From Candidatus Acetothermia bacterium (lineage in GTDB: Bacteria; Bipolaricaulota; Bipolaricaulia; M55B111): DNA of 19,738 nucleotides. Of this stretch, positions 1 through 9,000 are shown piece by piece. The first letter of the stretch is position 1. Each line of letters opens with the position of its first letter. The stretch covers positions 1 through 19,738 of the forward strand of contig JBKGZT010000024.1 in assembly GCA_046543235.1 (NCBI GenBank), given 5' to 3'. The position numbers are program-made.

Positions 1-3000
1 ACCGGCGTCTCGTCAGGTCGTTGGTGTTTTTTCGTTGTTTGGTCATTTTTCCTCCTTTTATTGTCTCAAATCGGTATTATCAAAAATATCAGAACGCTCC
101 AGACCGAATGCGAGATGACTACGGGCAGCAGTTCGCCCTCCCGCGCGTAGAACCAGCTCCATCCCAGCCCGGCTACGAGCGCGGCCACAACAAGCGTCAG
201 GTTGAGAGACCAGACGTGGACGATGGCATACAGCAATGCTCCTGCAAATATACCAATCAGCCCGCCGTAGTTGTCCTCCAGCCACCTTTGCACTGTACCG
301 CGCCAGAAGATTTCCTCTCCGGGACCGATAATGAGCGCCAGCAGAAGACCTATAATGGGCAGCGCTGCCGAATCGGTATTGCCGTAAACTTCGGCGATCT
401 CGCTTTCGGCAAATGGAATAATTTCCACTATCAATAAATTCCCAAGCCAGAACACCCCGTACAGCATAAGCGCAGAAACTACTCCTAAACCTACGTTTCT
501 CGCCGTCAATTCACCAAACGGCTTATAATTCTTCCAAGAAATCAGCGACGTTATAGCAAGTATCGCTACGGAACCGGCCATCTCCAGCCAGAAGTTAAAC
601 GGGTTCAGGTAAAACGACACGAACCAGAGCCCAAATGCCATGATTACCATGGATGGCACCGTAATACCTCTTTTCATTCTTCCGTTCCTATAAGACAACT
701 TCAAGCAAAATCGAAACCGTCAACAAACCACTAAAGGCGACGTCAAGCCGGGCGGTTCGGGCGTCGGCATCGTCGGGTATCTCTTCGACGAAGGTCTTAA
801 GTAGCTTGTATGCCAGGGGGAAGGACAGGAACACAAGAGCGCCCCATGGGCTCAACACTTCCTCCAGGATCAAATAGCCAAGAACCGAATAAGTCCCGAC
901 GGTAATGAGCAGGTACAATACGACGGCGTCCCGTTTATCCAGCAGGTTTGCGATCGTGTTTACCCCGGCTTTTTGGTCGTAAACCCTGTCCCTCAAGTTA
1001 TTCGCCAGGAGAGTCAGGGCGACCAGCAGCCCCAAGGGGATCGATACGAGAAATGGCAGGACGCCGATAGAACCCGATTGTACGTAGTAAGCACCCGTGA
1101 CCAGGAGTGGTCCCCAGACCAGAAATACGGCCACTTCGCCCCAGCCCCAGTACTTGTATTTTACCCCGCCGGTGTAGGAGTAACCCAAGACCACTCCCAA
1201 TATACCGATGGCCAGAACCAGTGGGCCAGAAACGTACGTCAGGTATAAGCCGATAACTATTCCCACCAGGTACATCCCCGAAAAATACGCCCTTATCTCG
1301 TTCGGTTCAAACCACTCTTCTACGAGCGGCTGTTGCCTGTACCTAGTAGTCGGAGACCCCTCTCTGTCCACTTCTTCCCGGAAATCGTAGTAATCGTTCG
1401 TCAGGTTTACAGCTCCGTGCAGCATAACTGTTCCGATTGCAACGAGTACCAGACGTAGAGTGTGGAAACCTCCCGTTCTCGCCGCCAGCAGCGACCCCAC
1501 CAGCACAGAACCCAAAGTCATCGGGAAGGACCAGGGGCGGCTACTGATCAGCAGGGCCTTGGCTTTGTTCATCTGTTCCCTCGATCTCCTCCGTTAAGAG
1601 AAGTCATCAAATAGGATATCGTCCTCGTCAACGCCGTAATCCTTTAACAGATCGATCGTCGCATCCATCATCGGAGGAGGCCCACAGAGGTAACCCTCCA
1701 TGTCCCATTCCTCCTGGAGATAGTCGTCCATAACCTCGGTAATCAATCCTACTTCTCCATCCCATTCCGGCTGAGACGAGTCAAGGGCCGGAACGTAGTT
1801 AAAGTTTTCGTGTTCCTCGGCCAGTTCATGAAGGTCCTCGTGGTAGTAGAGATCCTCCCGGGTCCTGGATCCGTAGAAGAGCCAGATCTCTCGATCCGTC
1901 CCCTCTTCCAGTTCCGAGAAGACGATTGACCTCAGCGGAGCGAGACCGACTCCTCCAGCTACCCCAATTATCTTCGCGTCGGTGTCCTGAACGTAGAAAT
2001 CCCCGAAAGGTCCGGTAAATTCTACTTCCTCACCTTCTTCGAGCTCATGGAGATAAGTGGAACCCAGCCCCCCTTCGATCAACTGTACCGTAAGCATGAC
2101 CTCCTCATGGACGCTCTCTTCCGAAGCAATCGAGTAGGCCCTGTCCACGGTATCTCCATCCGCCGGGACTTGAACCTGAACGTACTGGCCGGCTTTGAAG
2201 TCGATCGTTTCGGGCTCCTTTAGGTCGAATATAATTTCCTTGATCGAGGGGGTGACATCTCTGGTGGAGAGAACCTCGGCCTGGTACTTCTCGACCTCGA
2301 GGTATTTTGGCTCTATTTCCACCTTCATGTCTTCCCGAACCTTGACCTGACAGCTCAGGCGTACGCCATTTACGAGCTCTTCCCTCGTAAGCATCGGCTC
2401 TTCAGTCGGAAGGACGGGACCGCCACCTTCTTTCACCCTGGCCGTACAAAAACCACAGCTTCCCTGCCCACCGCAGGCGGAGGGGATATAAATCTCGTTT
2501 TGGGTGAATGCCTGAAGGAGAGTCGAACCCCCCTCGACCACGAACTCCTCTTCCCCGTCGTTCACGTCAACTGTAACGTCCTCGTATTCGGCGAAGAGCT
2601 TGTTCGCAATTACTAGCACCACGGCCAGGGAGCCTGCAACTACGTTAAGTACAATTATCGGACTTACATAACCCATCATCACGTCATCACTCCAGTTACT
2701 GTATTCCTACCATTCCGGAGAAACCGAGAAAGGCAAATGCCATAATCCCGGCTATCAACATCGTAATCCCCGGGCCCTGCAGGGGTTTCGGTACGTTCGC
2801 AAACCTCAGCTTTTCCCTGATAGAAGCCAAAGAAACTATGGCAACCATCCACCCGATCCCGCTACCGAGCGCGAAGATTATCCCGGTAAAGAAGGCGTAA
2901 TCCCTCAGTATCATGAACAGAGATACTCCCAGAATGGCGCAGTTTACGGTTATCAGAGGCAGGAAGACCCCCATAGTTGTATAAATGGAAGGGAAAAACC

Positions 3001-6000: not shown

Positions 6001-9000
6001 CGGTCTCCTTCGGCTCCTCAAGGCGGGTGAGAGAACTGTTCCCTTTGCCAACCGGTATATCAAGGTCATCCAACCTGATCCCGGTTAATGCTCCTCCGAG
6101 TATGTTCACATAGTCACCGTCCGTAGAGATATCGCTCCTTATAACTCTTCCCAGAGAACTACCAATTGGAACTTCGTAAAGGGCAGAATTTGCCCCTGGC
6201 CCGGTCAGACTAAACCTGTTCCGGACAAAAGGTACGCCCTCTTCCACGACTCGATAAGTTAGCAGAGGTACCAGTTCGTCCAGAGCGAGTATTCCGTGCT
6301 CGAGCAAAAAGCCCCCGGCATCCAGCCCCTCGACTCCCAATAGATCTCGGGCCAGGTACTTCGATTGATCCAGGTAACTTTCTCCGCTTACGGCATGAAC
6401 TTTGATCCTCTGACCCGACCCCATATCTTCCATCTCCCGGTAGGTCTCTTCGTCCAGAGCGAAGTGCAGCTGTGCATCCGGAAAACTTCGGGCAAGAATT
6501 CTAAGTCCCTTTTTGAAACTGGAAAGCTCATCTCCGTAATTAACCAGATGCCTGGCGAATGGAGAAATCCTAACTCCGTTTATCAGAATGGAATTGACGC
6601 TATCGGGCGGGAAATATGAGCTATTGAATTCGGTTGGAATCCCGGTCTGCCCAAAACCGGTAACTCCCCCCAGGTAAAGCAACTCCCTTAAGTTGGCGGG
6701 CTCTTCCTTCTCCCAGCTCACACCCTTTCCGGTAAGCTCCAGTCCCCCTTCCGCAGCAATTTTTACGGCAGGGATCATGTCATCAAGCCACTCCAGGGTT
6801 TCCTCGTGAAAGTATTCCAGTTCAACGATCTCCGCTACTTCGCCGTTCACGCTGGAATGAACCGGGGTGGATAGGGAGTTGTCATTGCGGGCAATTATCT
6901 CCCCCGCCTCGACTTTCTCTCCTTCACCTACGGATGGTTCCAGGGCAGACCCAAAGCCTCCTTTCAACGGTATAACCACTTCGTCCAACTTGCTAACCCT
7001 TCTAAAGGTCAGCTCGTCGTCCTCGTCCAGCTGGGTAAGATCTAAGCCAAATGTGTTCACTGTATTCACCGTCTCGTTGGAATTTTAATTGTTAACCTTT
7101 TCCTGACAAATATCTTGAAAAATTCGGGAAGCTCCCCTCCAGTAATAGGTCAACGCGTACAACGCGGAGGAAAAGACTACCCCCTTCTTACTCACGTAAA
7201 TCGATCTCAGGTGCCAGCAATATAATTACTAACGAAAATAATAAACATCCCTAAACTAGATTATAAATTCGTACCGATCTTCCCGACGAAGCCTTATAAT
7301 TTTGTTATTGTGAATATTATAGATAAGAAGGTTCCTTTGTCAATCAATATTATAGTCATATGCAAGAAACCTGGCATCGCCTGACCAATGGGGCTACCAG
7401 TAGGAATTTATCCAGCCCGCCTCCTTTCGTAATCAGTAGGAGTTTTATTACAATTTCTTTATCCAGAGATAGCCTCCCCAAGATAGCTTTCCCCTTTTAC
7501 CTCCCCACCACTCACGTATCTCGTTATTGACTCAAGTGCCTCCCTTGATTCACAGGCGATCCCTTCTGGCAGGGATTCTATCGCTTTATCGGCAAATAGT
7601 CTGGAGTAATCAACCGTCCTGTCAACTGCAGCGGAGCTCTTAATTATCCTTATCCCTTCCCTTATCTCTTCCTCCGAAGGATCCTCTTTTCGCAGGAGTT
7701 TTCTGAGGAAACTACCACGGTTCCCTTCCTCCAGAGCGATCATTGTGGGCAAAGTAAGGGTGCCCTCTTTCAAGTCGTTGCCGGGTTCTTTACCCAGTTC
7801 GTCCCGCCGCCCGATGAGGTCCTTCAAATCGTCGGCAATCTGGAAGGCAAGCCCAAGGTTGAGACCGAACTTTTCCATTCTGGCTCTCTCCCCTTCGTCG
7901 GCACCGGAAGCCTTGGCACCGAGCAGACAGCTCTTGCCCATTAAGAGAGCCGTCTTGTGACGAATGACTCTCAGGTAATCCATGAAGGAGAGGGTCGTCT
8001 TTCTTCGATATACCGTCTGGGAGGCCTGACCCCTGGTCATCCCCAGAGCCGCCTCCAGGAGGTGTTTCAGGTACTTACTATCCTCCAGTTTTGTCAGAGA
8101 GTTGGCGGCAAAGGTGTAGAGTAGATCGCCGCTCAAAACGGCAACCTTGTTGCCCCACTTGTAGTTCACCGCTTCCTTTCCCCTCCGTAGATCGGAATCG
8201 TCGATAACGTCGTCGTGAACGAGAGAAGCCATGTGAACGAACTCAACCGCGATCGCGAGCGGCCGAGCCTTTTCGAAGTCGTAGTCGAACATCTTTCCCG
8301 AAAGCAACACAAGGGCTGGCCTCAGCCGCTTTCCACCGGAATTTAACAGGTAAGAGGAACTATCCGTCAGCGGCTCGAGGTTGGAGTCGACGAGCTCTTC
8401 CAGCTCTCTTTCAAGCTCGCTTAAATCCTCCTCTATCGGCCCCAGCAGCTTAAGCATCGTCGTCATCGATACTCGTTCCTCCCTCTCCACAGTGGATAGC
8501 AGCTACTCCCCCCAGTAAGTTCTCGTAACGCACGTTAATCAACCCGGATTCTTCTAAAATCTTCTTCAAGTCTTCCTGATCCGGGAACTTCCTGACTGAT
8601 TCCGTAAGGTAGCGGTAGGGCGCCGTGCTTCCGTGTATGACTCCACCGACCAGCGGCATAATGTAGTTGAAGTAAATAGAATAGAAGTGGCGAAATACCG
8701 GAACCGTCGGGCTAGAAAGTTCGAGGTTTACCACTTTTCCTCCTGGTTTCACTACTCGTTCCATTTCCGAAACTACGGATTCGATGCTTTCGACATTTCT
8801 CAATGTAAAAGCCGAAGTCACGAGGTCAAAGTAATTCGTGGGGAAATCCAGCGACTCTCCCCTACCCTCGATAAACCTGACCCTGGAGCTATACCGAGAG
8901 GGTAGACCCTCCCTGGCCCTTTCAATCATCTCCGGGGTAATATCTACCCCCACTATCTCTTCAACTGGAAGGTGATCAGCCATTAAACGGGTAAGTTGTC

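Follow-up and report, generated by a model that had tools for sequence, protein, structure and literature searches.

An nqrABCDEF-type operon whose A subunit retains the cysteines of both RnfC [4Fe-4S] sites in a Candidatus Acetothermia bacterium

The window analyzed here, a 19,738-nt stretch of contig JBKGZT010000024.1 from a Candidatus Acetothermia bacterium (GCA_046543235.1), carries an nqrABCDEF-type operon whose A subunit (termed A') has all eight cysteines of the two [4Fe-4S] motifs of RnfC. We consider it fairly probable (about 0.6) that the six subunits form a membrane redox pump of the Rnf/NQR family, from an early-branching grade that bears NqrF, with menaquinone as the acceptor and with an A' subunit that holds two [4Fe-4S] clusters and does not turn over NAD(H). 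Since A' still has the two iron-sulfur sites of the Rnf ancestor, the operon appears to be a surviving early stage of the evolution of one respiratory pump into another.

Operon organization and flanking genes

The operon and its surroundings contain the following features, in window coordinates.

1-46, minus strand: gene start cut by the contig end, first 15 codons only
66-704, minus strand: CPBP/CAAX-type membrane protease-like gene; PF02517 58 bits
688-1572, minus strand: MenA-like UbiA-family prenyltransferase; menA TIGR00751 109.8 bits, cutoff 102.15
1594-2682, minus strand: F subunit (NqrF), 362 aa; Pfam Fer2, FAD_binding_6, and NAD_binding_1
2696-3277, minus strand: E subunit (RnfA/NqrE family), 193 aa; Cys25 and Cys113
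3279-3878, minus strand: D subunit (RnfE/NqrD family), 199 aa; Cys26 and Cys109
3871-4485, minus strand: C subunit (RnfG/NqrC family), 204 aa
4501-5592, minus strand: B subunit (RnfD/NqrB family), 363 aa; PF03116 371 bits
5576-7069, minus strand: A' subunit, 497 aa; fold of RnfC/NqrA, CxxCxxCxxxCP motif present twice, flavin loop and NADH motif altered
7316-7343, minus strand: promoter-like site, TTGACA-16-TATAAT
7459-8490, minus strand: long-chain polyprenyl diphosphate synthase; PF00348 230.6 bits
8450-9190, minus strand: UbiE/MenG-type quinone C-methyltransferase; TIGR01934 222.2 bits, cutoff 158.35

The six genes stand in nqrABCDEF order on the minus strand (1594-7069), neighbors being separated or overlapping by no more than 21 nt. 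The operon has no RnfB, and NqrF takes its place. A first-pass annotation had described the locus in these terms, and the F protein bears this out: it scored 307.4 bits against the NCBIfam model nqrF TIGR01941 (cutoff, 295), and by sequence it matched NqrF in the PDB (8a1t_F, 2.7e-68). A hydrophobic N-terminal helix (residues 1 to 32) is followed by a 2Fe-2S domain with the ligands Cys70, Cys76, Cys79, and Cys111, an FAD motif (RAYS at 181 to 184), and an NAD-binding domain; invariant alignment columns are part of the evidence for these features. The B subunit, with a hydrophilic arm at its N terminus, conserves the flavinylation threonine (D-A-T-T-T-A-T201-P-L) and scored 319.2 against nqrB (cutoff, 349.9) and 297.2 against rnfD (cutoff, 207.05). 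The C subunit has an N-terminal membrane anchor, an FMN_bind domain, and a TGAT motif at 168 to 171, and it scored 104.3 against rnfG (cutoff, 102) and 84.5 against nqrC (cutoff, 144). The cysteine positions of D are those of the same genome's own RnfE, and canonical NqrD has cysteines at these two positions too, among its four. B, C, D, and E all fell below the NQR equivalog cutoffs of NCBIfam.

The promoter-like site, a match at 12 of 12 positions, lies in the 390 nt that separate A' from the next gene upstream. As the whole scan returned 10 such sites against 7.2 expected, this one is notable only for its location and its perfect match. Genes of quinone synthesis type flank the operon on both sides. 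The MenA-like gene, which scored 182.4 bits against NF004617 (cutoff, 239), starts 21 nt past F in the same direction, and its place after F is conserved. Upstream and also codirectional are the polyprenyl diphosphate synthase (HepT-like, 268 bits, below the cutoff) and the UbiE/MenG-type methyltransferase. Genes for a Psr-like molybdoenzyme, its NrfD anchor, and a rhodanese lie at 12992-17196 in the same window.

The protease-like gene overlaps the end of the MenA-like gene and has the same place in a same-genus genome, G056. There, an ApbE gene lies directly downstream of the cluster (PF02424 260.7 bits, G056:C13:12007-12837), as an open reading frame of 364 aa starting 26 nt past the protease gene. 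ApbE had been reported as missing, and none was indeed found in our genome (87% complete). However, the window ends 46 nt into the gene at this very position, and the ribosome-binding site, start codon, and first codons in 1-46 align with those of the G056 ApbE gene.

The A' subunit

The cysteines of A' at 398, 401, 404, and 408 and at 437, 440, 443, and 447 correspond to the two [4Fe-4S] motifs of RnfC. They were invariant in all 40 aligned homologs and kept in 13/13 A'-type loci, and 119 of 120 database homologs had both motifs. The earlier claim of eight retained cysteines thus stands, and the worry that loci had been selected by cysteine-containing patterns was met by gathering metagenome homologs with Cys-free search patterns: the eight cysteines were present in 42/42 full-length A' proteins, and B-C-D-E-F was present in 15/15 informative loci. 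Full Cys motifs were found in none of nine canonical NqrA proteins sampled, in which the alignment shows a plain-structure remnant of the second motif.

By sequence, A' matched RnfC (7zc6_C, 2.6e-25) more closely than NqrA (7xk3_A, 6.8e-11), and it scored below the NCBIfam cutoffs of both families, as had been noted before (rnfC, 158.6 against 245.95; nqrA TIGR01936, 83.7 against 321.05; NF003761, 117.5 against 450). An AlphaFold model (pLDDT 82, pTM 0.84) gave Foldseek TM-scores on the query of 0.68 to 0.71 with RnfC chains and 0.59 to 0.66 with full-length NqrA chains; the modeled fold is slightly closer to RnfC than to NqrA.

In Pfam, A' matched only the RnfC_N and Fer4 dicluster models, with no match to Complex1_51K (PF01512). 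In alignments with 7zc6_C and the genome's own RnfC, GVTGFGQTGIPT takes the place of GIVGMGGA(T/A)FPT and NGVRISPF that of NAAECEPY, so that neither the Gly-rich GGA nor the Glu-Cys-Glu of ECEP is retained. We likewise recovered the reported absence of RnfC patterns among the 120 database homologs (ECEP/ETEP, 0; GGAxFPT, 0). The same genome serves as an internal control, as it carries canonical rnfDGEAB and rnfC genes separate from the operon; this genuine RnfC scored 530.6 bits against TIGR01945 and 175.1 bits against PF01512. The claim that the flavin/NADH motifs are degenerate holds for the A' of the window, but the flavin-domain signature can still be detected in other phyla, where four of five A' proteins scanned scored 48.5 to 52.1 bits against PF01512 (cutoff, 31.2) and one (L110) passed the rnfC model (273.9 against 245.95). 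The Gly-rich loop and the ECEP motif are changed there despite these scores. Loss of this signature is restricted to the Bipolaricaulota lineage of the window. Y132, G135, G143, P145, and S151 of the loop are invariant in the 40-sequence alignment, and this conserved new form speaks for a remodeled site rather than a dead one.

Distribution and phylogeny

The A' type is present in Bipolaricaulota, Omnitrophota, Planctomycetota, and Bacteroidota. In a sample of genome loci picked by F rather than by A (57 informative), nine had an A gene upstream of B. All nine encoded the two Cys motifs and none a canonical NqrA; 44 loci were A-less, and 4 had the order D-E-F-B-C. The proposed tie of A' to NqrF in many lineages was reproduced, but the linkage of NqrF is not specific to A'. 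Synteny was kept, as claimed, in relatives (A'-B-C-D-E-F in 3/4 same-family loci fetched), the exception being L050, which lacks F at the locus; F is relocated elsewhere in L069 and L050. Both derived lineages with changed partner genes have lost the cysteines or the entire A subunit. MenA/HepT/UbiE-like neighbors were found at 6/9 A'-type loci, 0/44 A-less loci, and 0/4 D-E-F-B-C loci, and they followed F in 11 of the 15 informative metagenome loci.

Trees were built from B+D+E (36 rows with a careful method and 54 rows with a quick one) and separately from A, all rooted on Rnf; this root is assumed, and NQR, A-less, and D-E-F-B-C sequences sit on long branches. In the 36-row tree, support was 100/100 for Rnf and 100/98 for the NqrF-bearing clade, within which the Bipolaricaulota A' type splits off first (remainder, 94/92) and canonical NQR groups with the A-less and D-E-F-B-C types (97/99). 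Only 9% of bootstrap trees recovered A' as monophyletic. The 54-row tree agreed with the 36-row one. In the A tree, canonical NqrA is nested within the A' grade, and A' lies inside no sampled Rnf lineage (Rnf clade support, 99). Both A and B+D+E trees give the order Rnf, X-type, A' grade, and canonical NQR, and four separate motifs decay in graded steps along it. In the unrooted F tree, the A-less type groups with Omnitrophota-type A' rather than canonical NQR. The A and B+D+E trees place the A' type at the base of the NqrF-bearing clade, as a grade from which canonical NQR and A-less nqrBCDEF derive.

This placement upholds the view of the operon as an Rnf-to-NQR intermediate. The intermediate is not quite the predicted one, however: the 2014 model, as far as its accessible text goes, has RnfC decay precede NqrF recruitment (PMC4014512), whereas here NqrF coexists with intact A' cysteines, indicating a different order of events. 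Searches of an open-access library turned up no account of an NqrA with iron-sulfur sites, and the term undescribed rests on these searches.

Proposed function and comparison with known systems

Homology to the solved structures of Rnf and NQR suggests a path in which NADH reduces the FAD of F and electrons then move on to that subunit's 2Fe-2S cluster, an intramembrane Fe-S site held by the Cys pairs of D and E, the covalent FMN of C, and finally B, with its covalent FMN and its riboflavin. This passage would be coupled to the export of Na+ or H+. A' would sit on the cytoplasmic face of B, like RnfC and NqrA, its two putative [4Fe-4S] clusters adjoining the riboflavin, and would no longer oxidize or reduce NAD(H). 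Menaquinone is the most likely final acceptor, and an NADH:menaquinone-reducing ion pump is the most likely function. MenB, MqnA/D, and MqnC were not found in this genome, so that no pathway to the naphthoquinone head group is evident.

In canonical NQR, the riboflavin reduces quinone without a cofactor in the A subunit, and the A' clusters may thus be dispensable. We give slightly less than even odds to their lying on the productive path to quinone, as opposed to a retained side branch or scaffold; in Rnf, electrons cross 11.7 Å from riboflavin to the RnfC clusters (PMC9588780, accessible text). A rather unlikely form of the same complex, with the same acceptor, would have the riboflavin of B reduce menaquinone directly and A' act as a scaffold, its Fe-S domain serving folding or stability. 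Such an arrangement is consistent with the cofactor-free function of canonical NqrA described in the accessible parts of PMC12174285 and PMC4014512, with the remnant of the second motif serving there as plain structure, and with the 44/57 operons that lack an A gene. However, the cysteines are kept across at least four phyla (13/13 and 42/42; both motifs, 119/120), more than for a decaying relic, lineages with changed partners lost them or all of A, and A' tracks quinone genes (6/9 loci against 0/44 A-less). The clusters might instead serve a soluble or membrane partner at the old NAD+ site, such as a ferredoxin-like or thiol-based carrier. This is improbable, as is its corollary that menaquinone genes adjoin the operon for some other reason. 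The pocket conserved in a new form and the missing head-group pathway would fit, as would the variant Rnf of Desulfobacula toluolica, for whose RnfC without NADH domains another acceptor was proposed to be necessary (PMC5109826, accessible text). Against it, the linkage to prenyltransferase and polyprenyl synthase genes recurs over phyla (6/9 genome and 11/15 metagenome loci), a quinol-oxidizing Psr-like enzyme is encoded in the same window, and no conserved candidate partner gene adjoins the operon. Forward flow through the pump would also require an acceptor more positive than NADH, which would exclude ferredoxin.

The shuffling of operons in the family (D-E-F-B-C in four loci; F moved in L069 and L050) and the incomplete congruence of the F and B+D+E trees could reflect a chimera of later origin, in which recombination returned an RnfC-like gene to an NQR or A-less operon and the likeness to an intermediate is secondary. 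We regard this as very improbable, given that the A and B+D+E trees agree on the grade, that A' falls outside every sampled Rnf lineage, and that the four motifs decay in the same order. Hardly credible, finally, is an A' that still binds flavin, and possibly a nicotinamide nucleotide, in an Rnf-like or transhydrogenase-like machine that is no quinone reductase. The PF01512 scores from other phyla, the rnfC score of L110, and the conserved loop lean that way, but the window's protein lacks PF01512, GGA, and the Glu-Cys-Glu, either RnfC pattern occurs in 0/120 homologs, and with a second NADH site electrons would merely run in a loop from NADH to NAD+, without driving force.

Among known systems, the variant Rnf of D. 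toluolica Tol2 resembles the A' operon in an RnfC-type subunit without NADH and soluble-ligand domains and in an NAD-binding site shifted to the input side. Instead of NqrF, its input subunit is an RnfB enlarged to about 700 aa, and its account, in the accessible text, makes no tie to NQR evolution or quinone (PMC5109826). The A-less nqrBCDEF form is already in print for Clostridium ultunense, Pseudothermotoga lettingae, and Alkaliphilus metalliredigens (PMC5924567, accessible text). It shares with the A' type a short NqrF (about 360 to 370 aa), the closest relative of the A' group's F outside that group, and the B-C-D-E-F core. It differs in lacking an A gene (44 loci), in a shorter B (median, 317.5 aa against 360 aa), and in having menaquinone genes nearby in 0/44 loci.

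Rnf (RnfCDGEAB; 7zc6, 9eri, and 8ahx) has in common with the A' operon the RnfC fold with two [4Fe-4S] motifs, B, C, and D subunits that pass the rnfD, rnfG, and RsxE subfamily cutoffs, and, by homology, the probable cluster position beside riboflavin. In contrast to Rnf, the A' operon has NqrF instead of RnfB, and A' has replacements for the GMGGAxFPT flavin loop and the ECEP NADH motif, no PF01512 match, and an rnfC score below the cutoff (158.6 against 245.95). With canonical Na+-NQR (Vibrio cholerae 7xk3 and 8a1t; the menaquinone-reducing form of Segatella/Prevotella bryantii), it shares the A-B-C-D-E-F order, an NqrF input module above the equivalog cutoff, the flavinylation sites of B and C, the Cys pairs of D and E, a nearby ApbE (here in a relative), and a quinone acceptor (here probable). 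Canonical NqrA is cofactor free, with full Cys motifs in 0/9, whereas A' has all eight cysteines; F and B are each about 360 aa in the A' type, against 405 to 414 and 389 to 435 aa, respectively, and every subunit of the operon except F scores below the NQR equivalog cutoffs. Unlike canonical NQR, the A' type occurs in lineages of anaerobes and adjoins menaquinone genes.

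The operon and its subunits

Ten minus-strand genes running in one direction fill positions 66 to 9190 of the window. The genes beside the six operon subunits were identified with Pfam and NCBIfam, and the features are as follows.

8450-9190, minus: UbiE/MenG methyltransferase
7459-8490, minus: long-chain polyprenyl diphosphate synthase, with a 390-nt gap between it and A'
5576-7069, minus: A', the cysteine-bearing first subunit
4501-5592, minus: B
3871-4485, minus: C
3279-3878, minus: D
2696-3277, minus: E
1594-2682, minus: F (NqrF)
688-1572, minus: MenA-like UbiA prenyltransferase
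66-704, minus: CPBP/CAAX-type protease-like gene
9432-11138, plus: B12-binding radical SAM gene, adjoining the quinone methyltransferase on the opposite strand
11183-17196, plus: Rex-type regulator, nitrate-reductase-delta-type chaperone, molybdoenzyme genes (a Tat-signalled molybdopterin oxidoreductase, a 4Fe-4S subunit, and an NrfD-type membrane anchor), and next to these a rhodanese
17840-19642, minus: tungsten-type aldehyde:ferredoxin oxidoreductase, at the far end of the window

From A' through the protease gene, neighbors overlap or are separated by no more than 21 nt, and the gene order matches canonical nqrA-B-C-D-E-F without rnfB. No RnfB-like ORF was found in the operon with Pfam or NCBIfam; the slot after E is taken by F, and the genome's only RnfB lies on a different contig. 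The operon is as the first-pass annotation described it, with a true NqrF, no RnfB, and all eight cysteines in A', and the Pfam, NCBIfam, and alignment results concur. A perfect TTGACA-16-TATAAT is present at 7343 to 7316, in the gap before A' and on the strand matching the operon. Since the promoter-type scan overall returned 10 sites compared to 7.2 expected, it is the placement and the perfect match alone that are notable. Rfam at gathering thresholds gave no matches in the window, and the 390-nt leader is thus without a detected riboswitch. A scan for Rex operators (consensus pattern, up to 3 mismatches) found 3 sites compared to 0.69 expected, a number reached in 6 of 200 shuffles, and none was upstream of A'. 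One Rex-box-like site with 2 mismatches, at 12176 to 12193 upstream of the chaperone gene, is statistically not compelling.

The F subunit scored 307.4 bits on the nqrF model TIGR01941 (cut-off, 295), and its closest solved relative was 8a1t_F (2.7e-68); both values behind its earlier identification as NqrF were reproduced. F has a hydrophobic N-terminal segment (residues 1 to 32), 2Fe-2S cysteines at positions 70, 76, 79, and 111, a RAYS flavin motif, and an NAD-binding domain, and these four cysteines, RAYS, and GGxGxxP are invariant across the F alignment. The other subunits were all below the cut-offs of the nqr equivalog models: nqrB (319.2 versus 349.9), nqrC (84.5 versus 144), nqrD (183.3 versus 244.85; NF006777, 194.4 versus 235), and nqrE (228.3 versus 247.55). 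Among the rnf-type models, rnfD (297.2 versus 207.05), rnfG (104.3 versus 102), and RsxE NF009070 (205.1 versus 184) were above the cut-off, and rnfA (209.8 versus 229.3) and rnfE (188.8 versus 213.4) were below it. C carries a TGAT flavinylation site at 168 to 171, and T201 of B falls, in the alignment, on the A-T-P-L site at which RnfD and NqrB are flavinylated. D (Cys26/109) and E (Cys25/113) each have a cysteine pair, at positions where the genome's own RnfE and RnfA and a canonical NqrD and NqrE also have cysteines. We take these threonines and cysteines to be the cofactor ligand positions, so that the predicted core cofactor sites of B, C, D, and E are all present. The ligand roles follow in part the accessible text of the Rnf structure paper (PMC9588780).

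The only Pfam matches of A' (E ≤ 0.001) were to the N-terminal barrel domain of RnfC and to a ferredoxin dicluster (Fer4); there was no match to PF01512, the Complex1_51K flavin/NADH-domain model, at that threshold. A' was below the cut-offs of rnfC (TIGR01945, 158.6 versus 245.95) and nqrA (TIGR01936, 83.7 versus 321.05; NF003761, 117.5 versus 450), and among solved structures it was nearer by sequence to RnfC (2.6e-25) than to NqrA (6.8e-11), in agreement with the earlier values. CxxCxxCxxxCP motifs occur at residues 398 to 409 and 437 to 448, and the eight cysteines were invariant in 40 of 40 aligned homologs. Two [4Fe-4S] motifs are therefore present at the C terminus, as in the Rnf C subunit, with cluster binding predicted. 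Residue-by-residue alignments with the solved RnfC 7zc6_C and the genome's own RnfC place A' GVTGFGQTGIPT opposite GIVGMGGA(T/A)FPT and NGVRISPF opposite NAAECEPY, so that the motif comparison of the first-pass annotation is now shown by alignment. The new form of the flavin loop is highly conserved, with Y132, G135, G143, P145, and S151 invariant in the 40-sequence alignment.

An AlphaFold2 model of A' built with the 40-sequence alignment (mean pLDDT, 82; pTM, 0.84) was searched against solved structures with Foldseek. RnfC chains 9eri_C, 8rbm_C, 8ahx_C, 8rbq_C, and 7zc6_C ranked first (E, 2.5e-29 to 4.3e-28; query TM-score, 0.68 to 0.71), followed by full-length NqrA chains 8a1y_A, 7xk3_A, 8acy_A, and 8acw_A (E, 5.0e-25 to 1.3e-21; query TM-score, 0.59 to 0.66), and NuoF-type subunits were far lower. 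The modeled fold of A' is the common RnfC/NqrA fold, slightly closer to RnfC.

The window corresponds to contig C4 in an assembly of 97 contigs and 1.32 Mb that is 87% complete, and the named relatives of A' and F are from Candidatus Bipolaricaulota. The same genome encodes an ordinary Rnf on contig C47 (6022-11376), where rnfD-G-E-A-B lie on one strand and rnfC converges from the other; an RseC/MucC-like gene shares the strand of rnfD-G-E-A-B. The window operon is therefore a second, paralogous complex rather than the cell's Rnf. The genome's own RnfC has an SLBB domain and scored 530.6 (TIGR01945) and 175.1 bits (PF01512), indicating that the absence of a PF01512 match in A' is not a quirk of composition.

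The first-pass annotation had reported that ApbE was not found, and none was found in the window's genome, 87% complete as it is; however, the start of the gene may lie at the contig end. In the same-genus genome G056, F, MenA, and the protease gene are followed 26 nt on by ApbE, and bases 1 to 46 of the window align with the ribosome-binding site, start codon, and first 15 codons of that gene. The contig of another MAG of the genus (L048, 1-140) ends at the same nucleotide as the window, and G056 has two ApbE genes (L049:11854-12948 and C66:2096-2920). A repeat-induced assembly break is the likely cause of the gap. ApbE was present in 5 of the 15 genus genomes searched, the window's included, and the data suggest that such a break would account for its absence from most of them.

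Distribution of A'-type and related operons

We defined an A'-type operon as one in which an A subunit that has eight cysteines and, in place of GGAxFPT, the loop G-[IV]-P-[TS] is followed by B-C-D-E and a short NqrF. The window operon has this arrangement, as do 13 of the 13 loci of the group and 15 of the 15 informative metagenome loci, and 119 of 120 database homologs of A' have both Cys motifs. A' matches at E ≤ 1e-20 were found in 47 of the 184 genomes of the phylum, and orthologs 47 to 71% identical in 14 of the 18 other genomes of the window's family. The synteny previously claimed among relatives was seen as UbiE-HepT-A'-B-C-D-E-F-MenA in three of the four family loci fetched, but one A'BCDE-MenA locus (L050, 8461-10026) has no F between E and MenA. 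In another relative (L069, 6240-11089), an 86% identical NqrF ortholog lies outside an operon of this kind, beside NuoE-like, NuoF-like, and 2Fe-2S/4Fe-4S genes.

In other families of the phylum, the matches to A' were weaker (28 to 36% identity) and belonged to a third Rnf/NQR-like cluster, here called X-type (L052 to L067; e.g., L054:4584-10891), which encodes an RnfC-like A, B, C, D, E, and two extra proteins. The X-type A has both Cys motifs. The first extra protein, of about 210 aa, matches the nqrF model over 5 to 120 and the rnfB model over 34 to 87; the input subunit would be an NqrF-like helix and 2Fe-2S domain joined to the N-terminal Fe-S domain of RnfB. The second, of about 350 aa, combines a 2Fe-2S domain with weak similarity to an ExtQ-like cytochrome-b membrane protein. 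C, D, and E are absent in four X-type loci (L060 and L062 to L064).

A 13-protein alignment of F was used to select 80 loci from one-genome-per-species contigs, which were classed by blastp and tblastn with A', RnfC, and a canonical NqrA at 1e-3. Nine had an A upstream of B, with two Cys motifs in all nine, and came from Bipolaricaulota, Candidatus Anammoxibacter, Planctomycetia, Omnitrophota, and one unclassified MAG. No A was found in 44 with at least 1.6 kb visible upstream, four had the order D-E-F-B-C (DEFBC), 23 were uninformative, and a canonical NqrA occurred in none. One locus, L144, has just 563 nt upstream of B on its contig, and its placement with A'-type rows in the trees is uninformative. 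A survey selected by B (PF03116) in a sample of Bacteroidota and Planctomycetota genomes gave three further A'-type loci, L156 from Bacteroidota and L179 and L184 from Planctomycetota, and also provided reference operons (nine canonical NQR, many Rnf).

Metagenomes were scanned with patterns containing no cysteine, taken from the N-terminal 395 residues of six non-Bipolaricaulota A' proteins; the scan is a sample of the wider A' family rather than of the window's close kin. It gave 78 loci, with the A ORF closest to A' in 56, and recovered the X-type in six (L235, L237, L238, L243, L246, and L259). All 42 full-length A' proteins had eight cysteines (39 with a strict C-P ending and 3 with C-V), and B-C-D-E-F followed in each of the 15 loci for which 4.3 kb or more of downstream sequence was available. 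This resolves the concern that the earlier metagenome loci had been selected by Cys-containing patterns. The A'-type feature is real, widespread, and conserved.

A-less operons (44 loci, L075 to L147; e.g., L139:7221-11098 and L096:7161-11554) are common in Cloacimonadota, Clostridia, Spirochaetota, Thermotogota, KSB1, and Desulfobacterota, and the complete genome of Geosporobacter ferrireducens is among the Clostridia. This nqrBCDEF form is already in print, in the accessible text of PMC5924567. In several of the A-less loci inspected in full (e.g., L096, L082, L128, L085, L087, and L122), F is followed by an ORF of 151 to 152 aa that matches nothing in Pfam or NCBIfam. The DEFBC operons (L076, L077, L078, and L080) were from Kiritimatiellae, Victivallales, and Lentisphaeria and have a much longer C (406 to 430 aa) and a short B (287 to 320 aa).

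Two planctomycetal loci had unusual A subunits. In L184 (6583-13170), the A of 344 aa keeps both Cys motifs without the barrel-sandwich domain and the flavin loop, and D and E appear to be fused (479 aa); the text available of PMC6828613 mentions a fused D-E "NQR" for an anammox genome. L181 (5785-12270) is Rnf-like, with an odd RnfC in which the flavin loop and ECEP are not conserved and a 696-aa RnfB. The locus is similar to the variant Rnf of Desulfobacula toluolica, which has a reduced RnfC and a large NAD-binding RnfB according to the accessible part of PMC5109826.

Graded motifs and phylogeny of the A subunit

Four motifs were compared in one alignment of 49 A subunits, together with PF01512 scores.

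Motifs and PF01512 scores (cut-off, 31.2) of A subunits
Flavin loop: Rnf, GMGGAxFPTHVK; X-type, GVTSGGQAGFPT; A', GVT(S/G)FGQTGIPT or GV(T/S)SLDREGIPT; canonical NqrA, G-L-W-T...R-P-F
NADH motif: Rnf, ECEP; X-type, ETEP; A', (G/T)SEP, in the window RISP; canonical NqrA, D(S/T)NP
YPQGAEK motif: Rnf, YPQGAEK; X-type, YPQGDDA; A', YPQGYDE, lost in the window's genus; canonical NqrA, HPAGLxG
GGPMMG motif: Rnf, GGPMMG; X-type, GG(P/V)LRG; A', GGPLTG or NSLLTG; canonical NqrA, GSVLSG
PF01512: own RnfC, 175 bits; X-type A, 82 to 92 bits; A' of Omnitrophota, Planctomycetia, and Anammoxibacter, 48.5 to 52.1 bits (passing; four of the five scanned from other phyla); A' of L156 and L051, 21 to 23 bits; window's genus, none; canonical NqrA, none

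All four motifs change stepwise from Rnf through X-type and A' to canonical NqrA, and the PF01512 scores fall in the same order. The A' of one locus (L110) is above the rnfC cut-off, at 273.9. Loss of the flavin site, as claimed in the first-pass annotation, is a safe description of the window's A', which has no PF01512 match and changed motifs, but "remodelled" better describes the family at large. Every Rnf (15 of 15), X-type (12 of 12), and A' (13 of 13) protein has both Cys motifs in full, and none of the nine canonical NqrA proteins does; these retain just a C...CPSK remnant of the second motif. The residue after the last cysteine is not proline in the odd RnfC of L181 and in L179.

A quick tree of B alone (68 rows) separated Rnf from the rest (99) and gave an X-type clade (92), an A' clade (96), and a clade of canonical NQR, A-less, and DEFBC operons (93). 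The single A' clade, with its SH-aLRT of 96, was overruled by the longer alignment of B, D, and E (760 columns; 54 rows in the quick tree and 36 in the careful completed search, with supports given as ultrafast bootstrap/SH-aLRT). In the careful tree, with which the 54-row tree agreed, Rnf was separated at 100/100, and the X-type (100/100) was sister to all NqrF-bearing operons (100/98). Among these, the Bipolaricaulota A' group (100/100) branched first, with the remainder at 94/92, and canonical NQR, A-less, and DEFBC operons formed a clade (97/99). A' was monophyletic in 9% of the bootstrap trees and is therefore a basal grade. The tree of A subunits (49 rows) had the same branching order, with canonical NqrA (100) inside A' on a long branch flagged by the program. 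An unrooted F tree (34 rows) set canonical NqrF apart (100) and had the sole incongruence, placing the A-less F beside Omnitrophota-type A' operons (94, 83) rather than with canonical NQR. The DEFBC operons were on a very long branch.

In the rooted trees, which assume a root on Rnf (rows from three phyla and the window's genome), contain long-branched derived groups, and use hand-chosen rows, a cysteine-bearing A is reconstructed as the ancestral state of the NqrF-bearing complexes. Its loss is predicted to be derived, by mutation in canonical NQR and by gene loss in the A-less forms. The congruent trees and the graded motifs make it a well-supported proposal that the A'-type operons are a surviving early stage of Rnf-to-NQR evolution.

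Proposed electron path and comparison with known systems

By homology with the solved complexes, electrons from NADH would enter at F and pass through the D/E site and then C and B, and the texts available of PMC12174285 and PMC9588780 describe an electron-path core shared by Rnf and NQR. The acceptor is most likely menaquinone, because prenyl-quinone genes surround the operon, both in the window and at the orthologous loci, and because a quinol-oxidising Psr-like enzyme and a rhodanese lie 5 kb away. The surveys point the same way. MenA/HepT/UbiE-like genes were present at 6 of 9 A'-type genome loci, the six spanning two phyla and including non-independent kin, compared to 0 of 44 A-less and 0 of 4 DEFBC loci, and they lie after F in 11 of the 15 informative metagenome loci. 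A 2025 review also argues, in its accessible text, that NQR started as a menaquinone reductase (PMC12174285). However, MenB, MqnA/D, and MqnC were not found in the window's genome (87% complete), despite its MenA-like, UbiE-like, and polyprenyl synthase genes, which weighs against a straightforward quinone interpretation; the naphthoquinone head group may be obtained by salvage or by a different route. The molybdopterin oxidoreductase set looks like a polysulfide, thiosulfate, or tetrathionate reductase, and together with the operon it could form a short respiratory chain from NADH to a sulfur compound. From homology and gene neighborhood, we infer that the operon would encode an NADH:menaquinone pump with an Fe-S-bearing A subunit, exporting Na+ or H+.

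The part played by the A' clusters is less certain. In Rnf, electrons pass from riboflavin to the RnfC clusters over 11.7 A, and in both Rnf and NQR the N-terminal arm of B is buried in the C/A subunit, according to the portions available of PMC9588780. The B subunits of A-less operons are shorter (median, 317.5 aa compared to 360 aa), which fits a loss of this arm, and from the solved homologs A' is expected to bind B. That the A' clusters lie on the path to the quinone, rather than being a retained side branch, we consider a little less probable than the opposite. In a fuller reading, to which as a whole we assign a probability of about 0.35, these operons would be the living stem of NQR and A its output module, with clusters that pass electrons from the riboflavin of B to menaquinone or to the remodelled former FMN pocket. 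The X-type and A'-type operons would then lay out stepwise module swaps, beginning with replacement of the input and ending with loss of the cysteines, canonical NqrA would be a fossil of the output wire, and the presence of A would mark the quinone-reducing members. If this stem reading is true, the order of events differs from that in the published model.

NQR serves many pathogens and marine bacteria as a main respiratory sodium pump. According to the accessible text of PMC12174285, no function has been assigned to its A subunit, and a widespread natural A with two iron-sulfur sites offers a direct handle on the past, and perhaps the structural present, role of NqrA. The proposed path from Rnf to NQR becomes a series of extant stages open to expression and comparison, and the tie between A and menaquinone genes may help to predict quinone-respiring uncultured anaerobes. 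In the accessible text of the open-access literature searched, we found neither an Fe-S-bearing NqrA nor the pairing of an RnfC-like subunit with NqrF described. Current labels of A'-type genes vary by source between RnfC, NqrA, and "4Fe-4S dicluster protein," and an Anammoxibacter study, in its available text, took such genes for Rnf as "nqrA was missing" (PMC9325076).

The window operon shares with canonical Na+-NQR the gene order, an NqrF above the equivalog cut-off, the flavinyl threonines, and the D/E cysteine pairs. In contrast, its A' is predicted not to be of the cofactor-free type, having eight cysteines where full motifs were found in 0 of 9 sampled NqrA proteins, and B to E are below the equivalog cut-offs. 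That NqrA has no cofactor, as the first-pass annotation noted, is stated in the accessible texts of both a 2014 and a 2025 paper (PMC4014512 and PMC12174285). With Rnf the operon shares the two C-terminal [4Fe-4S] motifs, but it is without RnfB, and its A' is without a match to the NuoF-like FMN/NADH domain. The operon is best regarded as a variant within the Rnf/NQR family that belongs to neither curated family.
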